A stretch of DNA of 33,922 nt. Source: a virus. Lineage: Duplodnaviria > Heunggongvirae > Uroviricota > Caudoviricetes. Below are positions 18,910-28,105 of this stretch, piece after piece. Position 1 is the first letter of the stretch. Every line of letters starts with the position of its first letter. The notes under the pieces are model-generated. The model had not been told where the DNA came from, did no database searches, and saw only the letters and a list, made by a program, of their open reading frames with translations. The stretch lies in the IMG/VR virus record IMGVR_UViG_2630968639_000008. One strand, written 5' to 3'. A program made the translations under genes and the position numbers.

Positions 18910-19336
18910 AAGCTGTGTGACGAAGTAACCACTCTTAACAGCATAACCAATTTTTTACGTACGTAAACCACTAAATGATATTTGCGAGAATGCTACCGAG
19001 TATTGAAAACACCACTACAAATACATAAGCAAATCTCAACAAATAACCAACAAATAATTTCCAGTGTTATTTTCAGCCGGTTTAAATTGAACCTTCAAAT
19101 TATAGAGCACTTATAAATAACAGCCGTTAATATAAATTGGCTAATAGATTTATTTTTATTCAGCCAAGAGCCATGAATAGGATTCGATAGAAAAAAGTTC
19201 AGATAAAAATAGAGATCTACTTCACAAATCAAACGAGAAACCAAAACTTACATCTTGAAATAATCACATTGATTAGATGAATATTTATCGCGCAGTGACA
19301 TCATTTTTTAATAATAGTTCAAAAAAAGGGCTCACG

Positions 19337-20434
19337 ATGAAAAAATTAACAGTGGCAATTTCTGCTGTAGCTGCATCAGTACTGATGGCGATGTCTGCTC
19401 AGGCAGCTGAAATTTATAATAAAGACAGTAACAAGCTGGATCTGTACGGGAAAGTTAATGCTAAGCACTACTTCTCCTCTAATGATGCAGATGATGGTGA
19501 TACTACTTATGCCCGTCTTGGCTTCAAAGGTGAAACCCAAATCAACGATCAACTGACTGGTTTCGGTCAGTGGGAATATGAATTCAAAGGCAACCGCGCT
19601 GAATCTCAAGGTTCCTCCAAAGATAAAACCCGTCTTGCCTTCGCTGGCCTGAAATTCGGTGACTACGGCTCCATCGATTACGGCCGTAACTACGGTGTAG
19701 CATACGACATCGGTGCGTGGACTGACGTCCTGCCAGAATTCGGTGGTGACACTTGGACTCAAACCGACGTGTTCATGACTCAACGTGCAACTGGTGTTGC
19801 AACCTATCGTAACAACGACTTCTTTGGTCTGGTTGATGGTCTGAATTTTGCTGCTCAGTACCAAGGCAAAAACGATCGTAGCGATTTCGATAACTACACT
19901 GAAGGTAACGGTGATGGCTTCGGTTTCTCTGCTACCTATGAATACGAAGGATTCGGTATCGGTGCAACTTATGCGAAATCTGATCGTACCGACACTCAAG
20001 TTAATGCAGGGAAAGTTCTTCCTGAAGTATTTGCTTCCGGTAAAAATGCAGAAGTTTGGGCCGCAGGTCTGAAATATGACGCTAACAACATTTACCTGGC
20101 CACTACCTATTCTGAAACCCAGAATATGACTGTATTTGCTGATCACTTCGTTGCTAATAAAGCCCAAAACTTCGAAGCTGTTGCACAATATCAGTTCGAT
20201 TTCGGTCTGCGTCCGTCCGTTGCTTACCTGCAATCTAAAGGTAAGGATCTTGGAGTATGGGGCGATCAGGACTTAGTCAAATATGTTGATGTAGGTGCAA
20301 CCTATTACTTCAACAAAAATATGTCTACTTTCGTTGATTACAAAATCAACCTGCTTGACAAAAATGACTTCACTAAAGCACTCGGTGTAAGCACTGATGA
20401 CATCGTTGCTGTAGGTCTGGTTTACCAGTTCTAA
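19337..20434 (+). CDS. OmpC/OmpF-family general porin (prophage NmpC/Lc-type), apparently intact
   Basis: 365 aa from ATG 19337 (track ORF starts upstream): signal peptide [29 protein letters not shown], porin beta-barrel hallmarks, C-terminal ...VGLVYQF; long AT-rich promoter region upstream; antisense to Q and S as in DLP12 nmpC. Confidence 0.85.
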
Positions 20435-21007: not shown

Positions 21008-21229
21008 CAACTTACTCCACAAAAATCAGACCAGAACGCCAATTACAAGCAAAAATCAATAAAACAGTATTAGTTGATTGTTATCTCTGACTTCATACTC
21101 CTGCTCCTGTCAGGGTTTTGGCGTAATTCCTCAGTATTCGGTAATCGGTCAAAACAGAACTGGGGAAACGATATAAGCGCAGGCGCATCCAGCGGTGGCG
21201 AAGAAGTTCTGCCATATAAAACTCAAACA

Positions 21230-21592
21230 TCATTCATCTCCCAGTTCAGTGATGGTCAGCTCCAGCTTTCCACCTTTGACAACCGGCATCTTCACAACGC
21301 GGTAATCAACGATCTGAGCATCATCCAGCCAGAAACCTGCTTTGGTGAGTGCGTCAAAAGAGGCTTTTTGTAGATTATCCAGGTCACGGCGACGGCGATC
21401 CGGCATGTGGCACTCAATGCGGATTTTCACAGGCATAGCCAGACCGATATCCAGCATTGAGCCTTTAATGATTCGGGCGACGTTATCGCGGTATGCCTGC
21501 CCTTCTGCGCTGATGTGCGTGCGCCCTCGATTATGGCGGTAGTAGCGGTTATTGCTCGGCGGCCAGGGTAGTGTGATGTGGTAAGTATTCAC
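21230..21592 (-). CDS. rusA: Holliday junction resolvase RusA
   Basis: 120-aa [29 protein letters not shown]... with the acidic catalytic region ([10 protein letters not shown]); matches recalled DLP12 RusA. Confidence 0.85.
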
Positions 21593-21879
21593 GCCTTAAT
21601 TACCCCCTCTTTCAGCCAGATAACCTGCGTTCTCGCCATACCTTCCAGCGCGCATTCTTTTGCATATCCAGCGTCAACAAAATGCGTGCGGCGGTCGATT
21701 TCGTCGTGGCAGGCAGAACATGCAATGGTGGCAATCAGGTCTGGCGGTTTCGTACCGGTGCCGCACAATCCAGTCAGCCGGATATGTGCCAGTACAGACG
21801 TTTCAGGGTTGCCATTACATACGCCAGGGATTCTTACCTGGCATTCCCGACCACGCGCTGCTTTTCTCAAATCAGCCAT
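21589..21879 (-). CDS. ybcO: YbcO-like nin-region protein (Cys-rich, putative nuclease)
   Basis: Trimmed to ATG 21879 with GGAGGAG upstream; 96 aa; CxxC...CxxC pattern; ATGA-type coupling with rusA. Confidence 0.6.
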
Positions 21880-22042
21880 GACTCCTCCTTGCTGCCAGTC
21901 GCAACCATTTTTTATCAACCAAGCTGGCGGTATATCCGAGCAGTGTTGGTATTTCGGATGGCTTCAGCTCAGGCTTACGCTTACGACGATTTGGTACTCT
22001 GTAGATGTGTCCGTTCATGACACGAATAAGCGGTGTAGCCAT
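21872..22042 (-). CDS. ninE: NinE-like small basic protein
   Basis: 56-aa reading from ATG 22042 (overlapping the ybcN stop as TAATG); C-terminal [10 protein letters not shown] resembles lambda NinE. Confidence 0.5.
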   Translation of the reverse strand: MATPLIRVMNGHIYRVPNRRKRKPELKPSEIPTLLGYTASLVDKKWLRLAARRSHG

Positions 22043-22497
22043 TACGCCTCCTGCTTGTCGCGGAGCTGCTGGAACTCGCAGCTCTGCGGAATAGTCAGAT
22101 GGCAACCAATATTCATCGCCCAGGCTTCAACCTTACACAGGAAGACATACATCTCTCCGGTATCAAGATCGGAGGTATGGCGTAACGACTGGATAGTGGT
22201 GATATCACCGGTTACGACATCAACCAGGTCTTTGGTTTCATAACCGAGATATGTGTGTTTGAGAGCATCTTTTACCCAAGCTGGAGTGGCGAACGTTTTA
22301 CCCTTGCTGATGAGGTATTCACTGATTTCGCTGTACCACATGTGGCTGAGTGCATTCTGGGAAAGACTGCGTCTCTCGCGCCACGGTTTAAGCACCATGC
22401 GAAAGCATTTGCCGTCCTCCAGATAAGGCTGGATCTGCTGGCCGATAGCGGTGAAGTTGCCGCGATGTAATTTGATGCCGTCTTGTGAAAGGTTCAC
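22042..22497 (-). CDS. ybcN: NinB / YbcN-family protein
   Basis: 151-aa ORF with the RSLSQN motif, as in the NinB family; first conserved gene right of the AT-rich island. Confidence 0.6.
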
Positions 22498-22616
22498 GCT
22501 TCACCTCCGCAGAGGTCAAACGCTGGATGCAAAGAATTGCAGGTGCATTTCTGCATCTGTGAAGGGAGAAGAGAGTTTGGATTGTATGTGCGCATAAACG
22601 TCCCCGTTTAGCGCAG

Positions 22617-22649
22617 AAGTCACCGGAGGAGTTCAAACTCCGGTGACTT
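22617..22649. repeat. Perfect 12-bp inverted repeat (AAGTCACCGGAG ... CTCCGGTGACTT) with a 9-nt loop
   Basis: Seen directly; lies at the junction between the nin genes and the AT-rich cargo; no clean U-tract on either strand. Confidence 0.7.
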
Positions 22650-22718
22650 AATTATGACAAGTTGATTATTGAAAATCAAAAGTCATTTAAACAATAATGA
22701 TACCCCGCAAGAGATTTC

Positions 22719-23120
22719 TTATTTTAACTCATAGATCAGACAGTCAACGATTTCTAAACCATTTACCATAGAATTAGAAACGCGAACTTTACCATCGTTG
22801 ACTCTAGCAAATCCTTTTAACATTTTATAAATAAAAGCTGAATCCCCCTTAGCCTCAATTGCTTCTAATGGTATCGGCTTATACTTTTTTGATATGCTAT
22901 TTCTATTTATCTCACTGATTTTTCTATATATTTCTGCCGGTCCACGTTCTGAGAAGTCACTGATAACTAAAATATATCTCCAAGATAGATCTGGGTAATA
23001 AAACCACATTGCAGCATCAATAGTTAAATTCTGTAACTTGAGTTTTTTTAATAAAAATTGACCTGAGAATTCCATATCTTTTGTCAACTCTCTGCCGATT
23101 ACCAGTGTGCTTTTACCCAT
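22719..23120 (-). CDS. Hypothetical protein, downstream partner of the HEPN-like gene (overlapping, translationally coupled)
   Basis: 133-aa ORF; ATG at 23120 with GGAG 9 nt upstream; overlaps the upstream gene by 22 nt; AT-rich codon usage; no motif recognised. Confidence 0.5.
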   Translation of the reverse strand: MGKSTLVIGRELTKDMEFSGQFLLKKLKLQNLTIDAAMWFYYPDLSWRYILVISDFSERGPAEIYRKISEINRNSISKKYKPIPLEAIEAKGDSAFIYKMLKGFARVNDGKVRVSNSMVNGLEIVDCLIYELK

Positions 23121-23515
23121 TTCAAAACTCCAGAATTTTGGTCACCTACAGCATCAAACAATTGTTCGGCCATAGCTTTACTTATGTTATTGTCGTATCT
23201 AAATTGCTCGCTCCAGTCTTTAACGACCGACCAGTTAATCTCCAACGAAACATCATTTTTTGCGTCAGCAATCAAAATTTGATGTAAGTTGGCAATTTTG
23301 AGAAGTTGCGACAAATCATGAGTATATGAATCATTTACGACTTTTTTGTTTGGAAACTCATGTTGTAAAAATGACTTGGCAATACAGGCCTTCAATGCAC
23401 ATTCAACTGCATACCCACAAAGATAATATGCACCATGAAAAAAGCCATGATCAAGCAAGCATTTGGCCTCATTAAGCCTAGTGTCAGATAATGCTTCAAG
23501 GTCGTTTTTATTCAT
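23099..23515 (-). CDS. HEPN-domain-like protein (candidate toxin or abortive-infection nuclease)
   Basis: 138-aa ORF; helical pattern GAYYLCGYAVECALKACIAKSF, THDLSQLL and C-terminal RYDNN resemble HEPN four-helix-bundle proteins; AT-rich; TATAAT sits immediately upstream of the ATG. Confidence 0.55.
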   Translation of the reverse strand: MNKNDLEALSDTRLNEAKCLLDHGFFHGAYYLCGYAVECALKACIAKSFLQHEFPNKKVVNDSYTHDLSQLLKIANLHQILIADAKNDVSLEINWSVVKDWSEQFRYDNNISKAMAEQLFDAVGDQNSGVLKWVKAHW

Positions 23516-23979: not shown

Positions 23980-24474
23980 TCATTTCCAATTGCAAGACTG
24001 TGAAATTTTTTCCACAACCTTATCAATCTCAGACAAGTCAAACTCAACTACTTGCATAGTTGATCCATAAGGTTCAAACCCAAAAATAGCTTTTTTATGC
24101 TTAGCCAAGGTCTTTATAAATTGTATTGGTTGTGGAGCAAATGCAGAATCACCGCCTTCCCCACCACCCCAAACACTCTTGACCGGCTTTCCGCCATCTA
24201 ACCGCACTGTAATTCTTGGGTTGTCCGAACCCATATAATCATTGAATGATAAATAGGCATCTGTTTTGTTATCACTACAACGCAACACCAGTGAAGTTGC
24301 ACGATCAGTACCTGCTTTGTTATATGAATCTGGTGATAAATTAAGAGCCACAAAGTCAGTCTGGTCAGTCATTTTATTTATCTCAGACTTTGTTATCCAC
24401 GGCCCTAACTTCTCTACACCAGCATTTGCTGTAAACGAGGCACTTATGACAAAGGCTAAAATAAATTTTCTCAT
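23980..24474 (-). CDS. Hypothetical secreted/periplasmic protein (moron)
   Basis: 164-aa ORF with a signal peptide (MRKFILAFVISASFTANA/GVEK), AGGAGA RBS 8 nt upstream, own terminator; AT-rich. Confidence 0.6.
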   Translation of the reverse strand: MRKFILAFVISASFTANAGVEKLGPWITKSEINKMTDQTDFVALNLSPDSYNKAGTDRATSLVLRCSDNKTDAYLSFNDYMGSDNPRITVRLDGGKPVKSVWGGGEGGDSAFAPQPIQFIKTLAKHKKAIFGFEPYGSTMQVVEFDLSEIDKVVEKISQSCNWK

Positions 24475-24620: not shown

Positions 24621-24794
24621 TTAAACAAACGTTCGCCAGACCTTACCATCAATGACCAGGATTCCTGCACGCGCCATTTTAGCTGCTGCCTGATTTATGC
24701 AGGTTACTGTCACACCTGTTGCCGCAGCAACGTCCTGCGCACAGAAGCTCTTATGCGTCCCCAGGTAATAAATAATTGCCTCTTTGCCCGTCAT
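24621..24794 (-). pseudogene. ren: Truncated ren-like gene (57 codons)
   Basis: ATG at 24794 overlapping the P stop; hand translation MTGKEAIIYYLGTHKSFCAQDVAAATGVTVTCINQAAAKMARAGILVIDGKVWRTFV then stop; matches the N-terminal part of lambda Ren as I recall it (full length about 96 aa). Below the track length cutoff. Confidence 0.5.
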
Positions 24795-25492
24795 ACACTT
24801 GCTCCTTTCAGCCCAAACTTAGCTTTGATTTCTGCGATCTTCGCCAGAGCCTGTGCACGATTTAGAGGTCTACCGCCCATGACAGGAAGCTGTTTTACTG
24901 GTTCAGGTATCGCCTCACCACGGTTAATTCGCGCGGTCATACAGGACAGTTCATCGGCAGCCTTGCGCCGTAATTCCGCATCAGGAAGCGCATTGGCCCG
25001 CATGTTCTGGTACAGGTTGGTAACCAGCCAGTAGTGCGCGTTTGATTTCCATGGATAAGACTCTGCGTCCGGATACAGGCCACGCTTCCGGCAATACTCG
25101 TAAACCATATCAACCAGCTCGCTGGCGTTTGGCAGCCCGGCGGTAACGGATGCTTCTTCCCGGCACCAGGCAACAAACTGCCCGGGTGATGGCAGGAATG
25201 GTCGATTCTGCCGACGGGCTACGCGCATTCCTGCGTTAACCTGTTCCATTGTGGTGATCCCGTTTTCCCGGAAAGCCAGAACCCACTGGCGGCGGATTTC
25301 GTTCAGTTCGTTCTGATCCCGGTTAGCCAGGCTCGCAGGGAAAGTTGCCAGTAACTGGCTGAACACACCGTTGATGATCTGCGCTACCTGCTGTACCTGC
25401 GGCTTTTCGTCGTACTGTTCCGGCATATTGTTGGCGATCCGGCGCATCTGCTCACGGTCAAAGTTAACCATCTGTGCGGCGATGTTTTTCAT
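24791..25492 (-). CDS. P: Replication protein P (DnaB helicase loader)
   Basis: 233-aa ORF matching lambda P in length and sequence. Confidence 0.92.
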   Translation of the reverse strand: MKNIAAQMVNFDREQMRRIANNMPEQYDEKPQVQQVAQIINGVFSQLLATFPASLANRDQNELNEIRRQWVLAFRENGITTMEQVNAGMRVARRQNRPFLPSPGQFVAWCREEASVTAGLPNASELVDMVYEYCRKRGLYPDAESYPWKSNAHYWLVTNLYQNMRANALPDAELRRKAADELSCMTARINRGEAIPEPVKQLPVMGGRPLNRAQALAKIAEIKAKFGLKGASV

Positions 25493-26418
25493 AAATCCAC
25501 CCCGTAAATCCAGTCAGTGTTCGTCAGGTCGAGTTTTGGTTTGCCGGCTGTCACGCCAGCCTGTTGCTTGTTTCGGTTGATTTCGAGCTGGGTCCACTTG
25601 TCGCGGAGTTTGGCCGGACTCAGCACGTTACCGGACCAGAAGTTGTCCTGGCATGCCCAGCGGAACAGCACGCACATGTCGCGGTGGTTACGTCCGTCAC
25701 GTTCACGCATCAGGCGGATATCGTTAGCCCACCCTGCAAAATTCGGTTTTCTGGCTGATGGCGCGATGGTCTTCACCATGTCAAACATCCACTCTGCGGC
25801 GGTCAGGTCTTCTGCTGTCCCCCACTTGCTGCCACTCTGAATTGCAGCATCCGGTTTCACCACAGGAAGGTCGTTTTCTGGCTGGTCAGAGGATTCGCCA
25901 GAATTCTCGGACGAAAAAGGTTTTATATTGTCTTTTGTTAGTTTGTCTTTTGTGTTTACCTGATTCGGGTAAACGCCTTTACCTGATTTGGGTAAACTTT
26001 TCTTACCTGATTCAGGTAAATTTACCTCTTTCAGGTAAACTTTATTTTTCTTACCTGATTCGGGTAATGTTGACCATTCACTGACCACATTATTAATGCC
26101 GATATTTCGCCCGCTCTGAATAAGAATCCCACGCTTTACCAGAACGCTTTTTGCAGCAGAACACTTGTGCGGCAATATCCCGGTCAATTCGGAAAGTTGC
26201 TCGTTGCTCACCCAATCCAGTCTTTTATTAAAGCCATATGTTTTGCGCATGACAGCCAGGAAGACCAGAAGCTGGTGCTGTGTTAATCCGGCCAGCATCA
26301 CAGCTTCCAGCAACTCATTTGCAATGCGCGTATAACCATCGTCGAGATCTGCCACGCGCCGCTCCTTTTGTGCCACATCCGGCACTGGAAAATTGAATAT
26401 CTCAGCAGTGTTTGCCAT
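25489..26418 (-). CDS. O: Replication initiator O (lambda-like C-terminal domain, divergent N-terminal origin-binding domain)
   Basis: Trimmed to ATG 26418 (GGAGG upstream): MANTAEIFNF...; C-terminal ...KWGTAEDLTAAEWMFDMVKTIAPSARKPNFAGWANDIRLMRERDG...TNTDWIYGVDL matches lambda O; iterons lie inside the coding region. Confidence 0.85.
   Translation of the reverse strand: MANTAEIFNFPVPDVAQKERRVADLDDGYTRIANELLEAVMLAGLTQHQLLVFLAVMRKTYGFNKRLDWVSNEQLSELTGILPHKCSAAKSVLVKRGILIQSGRNIGINNVVSEWSTLPESGKKNKVYLKEVNLPESGKKSLPKSGKGVYPNQVNTKDKLTKDNIKPFSSENSGESSDQPENDLPVVKPDAAIQSGSKWGTAEDLTAAEWMFDMVKTIAPSARKPNFAGWANDIRLMRERDGRNHRDMCVLFRWACQDNFWSGNVLSPAKLRDKWTQLEINRNKQQAGVTAGKPKLDLTNTDWIYGVDL
25956..26067. repeat. 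Origin of replication: five 17-bp palindromic iterons (TTACC-N7-GGTAA) with adjacent AT-rich region 25921-25955
   Basis: Iterons at 25956-25972, 25979-25995, 26003-26019, 26022-26038, 26051-26067, inside O; an AT-rich tract follows in the O reading direction, as in ori-lambda. Confidence 0.75.
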
Positions 26419-26504
26419 AATTCCTCCCGCAATGAGTGTGTTACGATTTGCACCTGAAAGTCGGTTCTGTTCGCGCAGACCGGCTTTCGCCATTTCCGAA
26501 CCTG

Positions 26505-27050
26505 TCATATTGCCCCCAGCATGGTGGTGACCATCGCCATCAGTGGACCAGCCAAATCCGGGTCCACACGAAACATCGACACAATGCCTTCACTCATCTC
26601 CTTCAGTTTCTGGTGGCGTGGTGCGTTGAGAATGACAGCCTGTTTTGCCTCACTGAGTTCCTTTTCCATTTCAGCCAGCCGAGCCATGTAGCTATCCTGC
26701 TCAACCAGGTGGCCGCGATATTCCAGCGGTAGTACCGCCAGAATTGCCGGGGTCAGTTCACGCACGTTATTTCGGTATTTTTCAGAATCGAATTTGTTAT
26801 CGAGGAAGCGGAACAGCTTCTGGCGTGCACGGCTGACATCATCAGGGAAATCGATGGTGCCGCCGCCCTGCTCCCGATACTCATTCACAATGAGTGCGGC
26901 AACAACATCCTGATTATCTGCAGCCGACCAGGCGCGAACGGCATCACGGATTTTTTCGTGGCCTGGCGCCTGTTTTGTTTGAGAACGATTTATCACCGCA
27001 GTCGGGCTAAATCCGCTAGTCTGTTGGTATGTAAGTGGTTGCATAGTCAT
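26505..27050 (-). CDS. Hypothetical protein in the cII position (possibly YdaT-family)
   Basis: 181-aa ORF between cro and O on the early-right strand; not lambda CII-like in size or sequence; family assignment is a tentative recollection. Confidence 0.4.
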   Translation of the reverse strand: MTMQPLTYQQTSGFSPTAVINRSQTKQAPGHEKIRDAVRAWSAADNQDVVAALIVNEYREQGGGTIDFPDDVSRARQKLFRFLDNKFDSEKYRNNVRELTPAILAVLPLEYRGHLVEQDSYMARLAEMEKELSEAKQAVILNAPRHQKLKEMSEGIVSMFRVDPDLAGPLMAMVTTMLGAI

Positions 27051-27074
27051 TGCCTTATCAGTTAACGCCGCAGT

Positions 27075-27302
27075 TTAGGCGGCAGAATTACTCGCGTTAA
27101 ACAATGGTGCGAGGTCGGGACGAATATCTGCTGGTTTAATCTTTCCACCAGTGGCTGAGACAATTTTCATTACATAGCGGGCATCAATTCCGCCACCGTG
27201 TAGCCAACGCCAAACTGTGGGTTGGGCTACACCGCATAGATCTGCCAGTCGTTTTTGACTACCTGTAATACTGATTGCGAGTTGAATGGTTTGATTTGTC
27301 AT
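27075..27302 (-). CDS. cro: Cro-like HTH repressor (YdaS/Cro family)
   Basis: 75 aa from ATG 27302; HTH region QKRLADLCGVAQPTVWRWL; divergent from cI across the operator region. Confidence 0.7.
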   Translation of the reverse strand: MTNQTIQLAISITGSQKRLADLCGVAQPTVWRWLHGGGIDARYVMKIVSATGGKIKPADIRPDLAPLFNASNSAA

Positions 27303-27412
27303 TATCAATTCCTATTGGTATTGCAATGAATAAATAATAGCAATGCGTATTAACCCAAGCAATAGCAAAACGTGTTTTGACCATCAATACGCAAGCGTAT
27401 AAATTAAAACTT
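27303..27412. promoter_or_regulatory. Right operator/promoter region (OR): three related 14-bp operator sites with candidate pR and pRM
   Basis: Sites ATAGCAATGCGTAT (27337-27350), ATAGCAAAACGTGT (27362-27375), ATACGCAAGCGTAT (27387-27400, perfect palindrome), spaced 25 bp. Candidate pR on minus strand: -35 TTGCTT (27362..27357), 17-bp spacer, -10 TATTAT (27339..27334). Candidate pRM on plus strand: -35 TTGACC (27377-27382), -10 TAAATT (27400-27405), placing the start near the cI ATG. Confidence 0.6.
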
Positions 27413-28105
27413 ATGAAAAAAGAAACTCTTGCTGATCGCTTAAACCTAGCGATGGAACAATCTGGAATGTCTCAAGGCGCTCTTGCAAAGGCGTCTGGCG
27501 TAGCTCAACCCACAATCTGGAGACTGACAAGCGGCAACGCGCGCGGCTCAACAAAAATTGTTGAAATAGCTAATGCATTGGGTGTTCGAACAGAATGGCT
27601 CTCATCAGGCATAGGCCCGATGAGAAATGACGGTCAACAATCAGGGAAGCCTGCTGTCAGCCATTCAAAATACTTCAAGATTGACGTTCTTGATATAGAA
27701 GTCAGTGCCGGACCGGGTGTCATCAACCGTGAGTTTGTGGAAGTTCTACGCTCGGTTGAGTACTCGTTTGACGATGCTCGTCACATGTTCGATGGCAGGA
27801 AGGCGGAAAATATCCGCATTATTAACGTGCGCGGTGACAGCATGTCAGGGACGATCGAACCAGGTGACCTGCTGTTCGTTGATATCACTGTTAAATCTTT
27901 CGACGGTGATGGCATCTATGCGTTTCTGTACGACGACACTGCCCATGTAAAACGTCTTCAAATGATGAAGGATAAGCTGCTGGTTATCTCTGATAACAAG
28001 AGCTACTCGCCGTGGGACCCGATCGAGAAAGACGAGATGAACCGGGTGTTCATATTCGGTAAGGTCATTGGAAGCATGCCGCAGACGTACAGGAAGCATG
28101 GTTAA
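27413..28105 (+). CDS. cI: CI-type prophage repressor (HTH plus S24 LexA-like autopeptidase domain)
   Basis: 230 aa from ATG 27413; N-terminal HTH (MSQGALAKASGVAQPTIWRL); Ala-Gly cleavage site (EVSAGPGV), Ser in RGDSMSG and Lys in HVKRLQ; divergent from cro. Confidence 0.85.
   Translation: MKKETLADRLNLAMEQSGMSQGALAKASGVAQPTIWRLTSGNARGSTKIVEIANALGVRTEWLSSGIGPMRNDGQQSGKPAVSHSKYFKIDVLDIEVSAGPGVINREFVEVLRSVEYSFDDARHMFDGRKAENIRIINVRGDSMSGTIEPGDLLFVDITVKSFDGDGIYAFLYDDTAHVKRLQMMKDKLLVISDNKSYSPWDPIEKDEMNRVFIFGKVIGSMPQTYRKHG

Follow-up and report, generated by a model that had tools for sequence, protein, structure and literature searches.

Does the replication origin of this lambda-like prophage belong to lambda, or does its O gene carry a different origin specificity? 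The window, the whole stretch of 33,922 nucleotides that we analysed, contains a lambda-like prophage in reverse orientation. An earlier note had described iterons inside its O gene, in an ori-lambda architecture, together with a chimeric O protein, which it took as consistent with a swapped origin-specificity module. Our analysis indicates that the locus is very probably a lambdoid prophage replication origin, built like ori-lambda and furnished with a different origin-specificity cassette, its function being predicted from homology and conservation. We set out below how the array is built, where its module ends, how widely it occurs and how it compares with known origins.

Iterons within the O gene

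The pattern TTACCNNNNNNNGGTAA has five matches in the 33.9-kb window, each with zero mismatches and all within 25956-26067. The same count in 100 dinucleotide-preserving shuffles of the whole window averaged 0.44 with a maximum of 2, and five or more matches occurred in 0 of the 100. Each of the five iterons is a 17-bp palindrome of the form TTACC-N7-GGTAA, and in the copy at 26003-26019 (TTACCTGA-T-TCAGGTAA) the palindrome is perfect over all 17 bp. Start-to-start distances are 23, 24, 19 and 29 bp on the plus strand, which reads as 29/19/24/23 in the direction of the minus-strand O gene, and the array occupies O nucleotides 352-463, in the middle of the gene. The GC fraction is 0.28-0.43 across the iterons and 0.25-0.30 at 25900-25959, directly past the last iteron in the O direction, compared with 0.5-0.6 in the flanks. 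Thus five 17-bp iterons with irregular 19-29 bp phasing were recovered, inside an O open reading frame at 25489-26418 and followed in the O direction by an AT-rich stretch, as the earlier note had proposed; its coordinates for the feature, 25921-26067, were also accurate (iterons at 25956-26067, AT-rich tract at about 25915-25955). The features of the locus are listed in Table 1.

Table 1. Positions of the origin and neighbouring features in the window (iterons numbered in the O direction; iteron and tract sequences as read on the O strand)
Feature	Position	Strand	Description
S24 repressor	27377-28105	+	bet and exo lie beyond
Cro/YdaS-like gene	27075-27308	-	77 aa
YdaT-like gene in the cII position	26505-27050	-	181 aa
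Candidate pO-like antisense promoter	26393-26421	+	TTGAAT-17-tgCATAAT, from a consensus scan; overlaps the O start codon
O gene	25489-26418	-	309 aa from MANTAEIF; ORF open upstream to 26508 (339 aa)
O N-terminal origin-binding domain (PF04492), predicted	26074-26358	-	about O residues 21-115; non-lambda specificity type
Iteron 1	26051-26067	-	TTACCCGAATCAGGTAA; codon phase 0 (LPESGK)
Iteron 2	26022-26038	-	TTACCTGAAAGAGGTAA; codon phase 2 (YLKEVN); pairs with lambda iteron 1
Iteron 3	26003-26019	-	TTACCTGAATCAGGTAA; codon phase 0 (LPESGK); pairs with lambda iteron 2
Iteron 4	25979-25995	-	TTACCCAAATCAGGTAA; codon phase 0 (LPKSGK); pairs with lambda iteron 3
Iteron 5	25956-25972	-	TTACCCGAATCAGGTAA; codon phase 2 (YPNQVN); adjoins the AT-rich tract; pairs with lambda iteron 4
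AT-rich tract, presumed DNA-unwinding element	25915-25955	-	ACACAAAAGACAAACTAACAAAAGACAATATAAAACC
O lambda-type C-terminal part (P-interacting)	25489-25914	-	27-30 of 30 nt per block as in lambda
P gene (helicase loader)	24791-25492	-	Phage_lambda_P (PF06992), E 4e-61; start overlaps the O stop
ren remnant	24621-24794	-	57-aa ORF only

Repeats within a coding sequence raise the question of whether they act as DNA or as protein. The array could be merely a repeated peptide (LPESGKK-like) in a flexible linker of O, with no role as DNA sites, and it does lie in a segment of O predicted to be disordered, in which the repeat number varies by in-frame 24-bp units. However, the five units start at O nucleotides 352, 381, 400, 424 and 447, and hence in two codon phases, so that one and the same DNA motif is translated as LPESGK or LPKSGK in three units and as the unrelated peptides YLKEVN and YPNQVN in the other two. 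Every unit is, moreover, palindromic. The iteron arms match those of the window at 50 of 50 positions in an E. coli relative (L005) and at 49 of 50 in relatives from Salmonella (L007) and from Klebsiella phage GZ7 (L012), a conservation of 98-100%, whereas nearby synonymous sites, scored as third codon positions of the N-terminal region, are only 56-62% identical in the same three relatives; their N-terminal coding region as a whole is 78-83% identical to that of the window. These three relatives also have the iteron number and spacing of the window (29/19/24/23), the phasing is kept in five relatives, and the spacing matches the iteron arrays of lambda and P22. We therefore rejected the peptide explanation on the codon-phase and synonymous-site evidence, and consider it barely credible. 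Because the motif occurs in two codon phases, its arms are conserved, number and spacing are kept and the array is in register with that of lambda, the repeats are, on these sequence comparisons, DNA elements and not a peptide repeat.

The size of the array varies within this O type. An O gene from a Salmonella prophage (L006, 3352-3511) has seven iterons, and the extra two are perfect 24-bp units, each consisting of an iteron and a spacer and encoding LPESGKKS, so that the array grows in frame-preserving steps. An E. coli match (H151) is about 23 bp shorter across the iteron region and may have four iterons.

Two modules of O and their boundary

The O protein matches the Pfam family Phage_rep_O (PF04492) over the full profile (positions 1-95) with an E-value of 3.6e-34 and a score of 117.6 bits, against a cut-off of 28.7. 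Together with the five iterons in mid-gene, the AT-rich tract, the lambda-like phasing and the P gene downstream, this places the locus in the ori-lambda family, and the ori-lambda architecture claimed for it is borne out by an O-family initiator, mid-gene iterons, an AT-rich tract and P directly downstream.

Compared with lambda, O is 68% identical over its full length, but this value is split sharply in two. The N-terminal domain and the iteron-encoded linker are about 45% identical to lambda O, and the part from SSENSGESSDQ to the end is about 99% identical; P is 98% identical to lambda P. In the DNA alignment, 30-nt blocks agree with lambda at 4-23 of 30 positions up to the AT-rich tract, at 20-23 inside the tract, and at 27-30 from about 25914 onward, over the rest of O and almost the whole of P, and identity steps from about 50-60% to 93-100% at about 25914. 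Among other O proteins, the N-terminal domain is 50% identical to P22 gp18, 40% to HK97 gp54 and about 43-45% to the lambda, 434 and 933W proteins.

That origin and O are simply those of lambda, the lambda iterons having been misremembered in the earlier note, would agree with the lambda-type C-terminal half of O and the wholly lambda-type P. We give this reading no credence, given that the window contains no lambda-type iteron (TCCCTC..GAGGGA, TCCCTCAAAACGAGGGA) at up to 3 mismatches and that its N-terminal domain shares no more than about 45% identity with the lambda one. The earlier note had named identity of iterons and N-terminus with those of lambda as its own refutation; on alignment they are not identical, and neither belongs to the lambda specificity type (lambda, 434, 21 and the Stx phages). 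Identity with lambda, 434 or 21 was accordingly rejected on the difference in iterons and N-terminus. Identity with phi80 was likewise rejected: no phi80-type iteron (TTCCCG..CGGGAA, TTCCCGAAAACGGGAA) is present in the window at up to 3 mismatches, and full-length O is 44% identical to phi80 gp15, which sets it apart from the phi80 specificity type. These results uphold the earlier reading of a lambda-like C-terminal domain and a divergent N-terminal domain and iteron set, and they support the swap of the specificity module, since a specificity part of non-lambda type is here combined with a lambda part for the interaction with P.

No relative of O in the PDB was detected by sequence. The AlphaFold2 model of O is poor (mean pLDDT 44, from a shallow alignment of 16 sequences); it shows only helices plus a beta-hairpin over residues 28-108 and leaves residues 110-190 unstructured. 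This latter stretch, for which the iterons and the AT-rich tract code, is predicted to be disordered. The winged-helix fold of the O N-terminus is accordingly a prediction from the Pfam match and the secondary-structure pattern. The start of O is ambiguous between 26418 (309 aa) and 26508 (339 aa), and both forms are found in NCBI. The ATG at 26508 overlaps the stop of the upstream gene; the ATG at 26418 is favoured, as it aligns with the O starts of lambda, phi80 and P22 and has GGAGG 5 nt upstream.

The AT-rich tract is the zone in which the non-lambda module meets the lambda-like one. It is homologous to the AT-rich tracts of lambda and P22, and the motif ACACAAAAGACA..ACAAAAGA at its start is common to the window, lambda, P22 and HK97 origins. 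At this shared motif the similarity of the window switches from the P22/284-aa type to the lambda type. We infer that the motif is where modules swap by homologous recombination, which would make it a plausible crossover point.

A database search with the N-terminal 168 residues of O as query returned 1658 proteins at E<=1e-10. N-terminal domains of this type, 73-88% identical and accompanied by these iterons, are found fused to unrelated C-terminal regions. In E. coli (an O of 284 aa) and in Klebsiella phage GZ7, O is followed by a DnaC/IstB-like loader, in Salmonella (O proteins of 278 and 294 aa) by a P-family protein only 35% identical to lambda P, and in the window by lambda P. Other O N-terminal types come with other palindromes, namely TCCCTC..GAGGGA in lambda, 434 and 21, TTCCCG..CGGGAA in phi80 (four iterons TTCCCGAAAACGGGAA), TTAGC-N7-GCTAA in HK97 and TTTACC-N5-GGTAAA in P22. 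This co-variation bears on a second alternative, that the palindromes are operators of another DNA-binding protein, such as a repressor, a host factor or an exclusion function, rather than sites for O. Palindromic 17-mers are typical of dimeric helix-turn-helix regulators generally, and cloned copies of the lambda origin can hamper phage growth (PMC3349717, PMC4488673). Yet changes in the repeats go with the type of O N-terminus rather than with the immunity region, these iterons stand beside different repressor and cII-position genes in four relatives (L005, L006, L007 and L012), and the window holds no copy of TTACC-N7-GGTAA beyond the five in O. An operator function is therefore highly improbable. 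To judge from these comparisons, the N-terminal domain and the iterons instead behave as a single co-inherited cassette whose boundary would lie in the AT-rich tract.

Two of the relatives, the O proteins P0028 and P0086 (loci L005 3001-4712, L007 3001-4529 and L012 1713-3421), share 85% identity across residues 1-259 and diverge only in the final 20-25 residues. The gene that follows encodes a DnaC/IstB-like loader in one case and a P-family protein in the other. As they differ only at the tail, the extreme C-terminus may select the helicase-loading partner.

Proposed function, prophage setting and occurrence

By homology with lambda, N-terminal winged-helix dimers of O would bind the repeats and assemble an O-some, which would strain the neighbouring AT-rich tract until it opens. 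The lambda-type C-terminal domain would then recruit the P-DnaB complex and so load the host DnaB, and transcription running rightward from the cro-side promoter would serve twice, for the expression of O and P and for origin activation. These steps follow the published model, in which the O N-terminus binds each iteron as a dimer, the C-terminus binds P and a flexible linker lies between them, and in which the O-some stresses AT-rich DNA and P delivers DnaB (PMC6022878). The first iteron of the window is extra relative to the four-iteron lambda array and sits in a 30-nt insertion of the lambda alignment. In Stx phages, lambda-type origins with six iterons work, and the extra, AT-distal iterons matter there (PMC7466680); by analogy, the fifth, AT-distal iteron of the window origin would fit this pattern.

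The surroundings are those of a lambda-like prophage. Leftward of P lie a ren remnant, a DLP12/82-like nin region, Q, lysis genes and ORFs of a size expected for morphogenesis. The O N-terminal and iteron segment (25900-26421) is 100% identical in E. coli STEC409, in which the same gene series is found in a prophage beside dsdC/torI. RefSeq marks ren in that prophage as frameshifted, with an internal stop. Because ren is a pseudogene there, the prophage may be partly decayed and its origin perhaps unused. The window origin could then be an origin by descent only, a well-preserved fossil lying silent in the host within a defective prophage, a reading to which the short ren ORF of the window also lends itself, as does the fact that many DLP12/82-like E. 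coli prophages are cryptic. However, lambda can do without ren, both O and P are intact and nearly identical to those of sequenced phage isolates, and the window has a repressor, recombination genes, Q, lysis genes and ORFs of terminase and tail size. We consider a silent origin unlikely.

Several neighbouring features deserve mention. The YdaS-like and YdaT-like genes occupy the cro and cII positions (26505-27308) as in the Rac prophage, in place of lambda Cro and cII; in phage PhiR70_1 the homologue is labelled "cII". The candidate pO-like promoter, predicted from a pattern match and homology, has pO, the promoter of oop, as its lambda counterpart in the alignment. Some 30 nt further on, the plus strand has a strong hairpin (26455-26487) that is not followed by a T-run (minimum free energy -27.2 kcal/mol for 26428-26515, z -2.4). 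This arrangement points to an antisense RNA of the oop kind, which would target the ydaT-like gene at its 3' end; an Rfam scan of the whole window at gathering thresholds returned no oop-like or other RNA match. Between the ren remnant and the nin region lies cargo on the minus strand, at 22719-23515 and 23980-24474. It includes a HEPN-domain protein of 138 aa and, overlapping it, a 133-aa ORF that has no Pfam match; the two may act as a toxin-antitoxin or defence pair. The cargo further includes a VasI/TagO-like secreted protein of 164 aa. An intact porin gene of the OmpC/NmpC family (19277-20434) is located on the plus strand, opposite to its neighbours, and separates Q from the lysis genes, an arrangement that DLP12 also has.

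O proteins with swapped domains are textbook knowledge. The two-domain model itself first rested on hybrid O proteins, lambda-phi80 and lambda-82 (Furth & Yates 1978, cited in PMC6022878). Public collections already contain the O protein of the window in both exact forms, 339 aa and 309 aa; the longer occurs on 164 contigs and belongs to a 90%-identity cluster of 7825 members. Names in this cluster and among the homology matches are limited to "replication protein (O)", with no named phage type. In 15 sequenced phage genomes the whole O gene is 97-99% identical to that of the window and the iteron and AT-rich region 97.7-99.1%. They include PhiR70_1, Lambda_4C10, 4A7, 1W, 3W, Perceval, Turner and IdasGreatGrand, all annotate replication protein O, and several of the records give laboratory E. 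coli C or K-12 strains as host. Among 5426 complete E. coli genomes, the N-terminal and iteron segment is present in 2297-2453, and a probe spanning the junction of the iterons with the lambda C-terminus is covered to at least 80% in 2371 (about 44%).

The word chimeric, used by the earlier note, fits the bipartite identity to lambda but holds only relative to lambda. With its junction in 2371 genomes, its O proteins in public collections and its close counterparts in 15 phages, the apparent chimera is among the O alleles that are standard in E. coli prophages, and the feature is ordinary and effectively already known. Its iterons or rep_origin are nonetheless unannotated in all inspected records that carry the O type of the window. 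Because these records leave the iterons unannotated, the signature (five TTACC-N7-GGTAA units, 19/24/23-bp phasing and an AT-rich tract) should be useful for annotation, and it could be transferred to thousands of prophages of E. coli, Salmonella and Klebsiella. The window origin also confirms that lambdoid replication regions are modular, consisting of an origin-recognition cassette and a helicase-recruitment cassette.

Among the classical phages, phage 82 offers a possible identity for this type. Its origin, ori82, has a distinct non-lambda iteron set in the O gene, with a C-terminal half that is interchangeable with that of lambda. It was reportedly described by Grosschedl and Hobom in 1979 and by Moore, Denniston and Blattner in 1981. 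The nin region of the window (21092-22681) is 96.4% identical to that of phage 82 (X92588). Given this identity and these traits of ori82, the window origin may be of the phage 82 type, an assignment made through the neighbouring nin region. In the phage collection that we searched, phage 82 is represented by the nin fragment X92588 and by no origin record, and a full-text literature search with the iteron sequences and "ori82" returned nothing relevant. Homology to X92588 stops exactly at the start of Q, so the window Q is not that of phage 82; it is of a different, QuuD-like type. We also entertain, tentatively and as the less probable case, that TTACC-N7-GGTAA and the O N-terminus represent a biochemically uncharacterised class other than ori82. 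With about 44% of complete genomes carrying it, this class would be commoner in E. coli than any other lambdoid origin type. It would move as a self-contained cassette, joined by recombination at the shared AT-rich motif to at least three helicase-recruitment modules, which are those with lambda P, with a DnaC-like loader and with a distant P family.

Comparison with known origins

Lambda, together with 434 and 21, shares with the window the order (cII position)-O-P and an origin inside O in which an AT-rich tract comes after palindromic iterons. Iterons 1-4 of lambda pair in register with iterons 2-5 of the window, and the last three intervals are nearly equal (20/24/23 in lambda, 19/24/23 in the window). 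The two differ in the iterons themselves, which in lambda are four copies of (A)TCCCTCAAAACGAGGGA, of the form TCCCTC-N5-GAGGGA, and in the window five of the form TTACC-N7-GGTAA. They also differ upstream of O, where lambda has cII and the window the YdaT-like gene.

The Stx phages 933W and P27 likewise have lambda-like O and P modules, and the C-terminal half of their O gene is 95% identical in DNA. Unlike the window, they carry six iterons of the lambda type and lambda-type N-terminal domains, 43% identical to that of the window. The extra iterons of Stx phage origins are on the side away from the AT-rich tract (PMC7466680).

In P22, the origin lies inside gene 18, whose product gp18 has, among the classical phages, the N-terminal domain nearest to that of the window (50% identity). 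The half-sites of P22 differ little (TTTACC and GGTAAA), its spacing is 21/24/23, and its AT-rich tract opens with the same ACACAAAAGACAATA..ACAAAAGACAATA motif as that of the window. On the other hand, the four iterons of P22 are less regular and have N5 in place of N7, which brings their half-sites nearer by 2 bp; gp18 has an unrelated C-terminal domain and, as partner, a DnaB-type helicase (gp12) instead of P.

Phi80 gp15 and HK97 gp54 show the same architecture, with type-specific palindromic iterons in mid-gene. The HK97 iterons, TTAGC-N7-GCTAA, are one base per half-site away from those of the window. HK97 is about 40% identical over the N-terminal region and pairs with a DnaB-like helicase, whereas phi80 gp15 is 44% identical over its full length, with a C-terminus that is only moderately lambda-like. 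Taken as a set, the O types of the window, P22, HK97, lambda and phi80, with their slightly different palindromes, form a data set for how the N-terminal domain reads DNA, and they could help to predict cross-activation or initiator titration between co-resident prophages.
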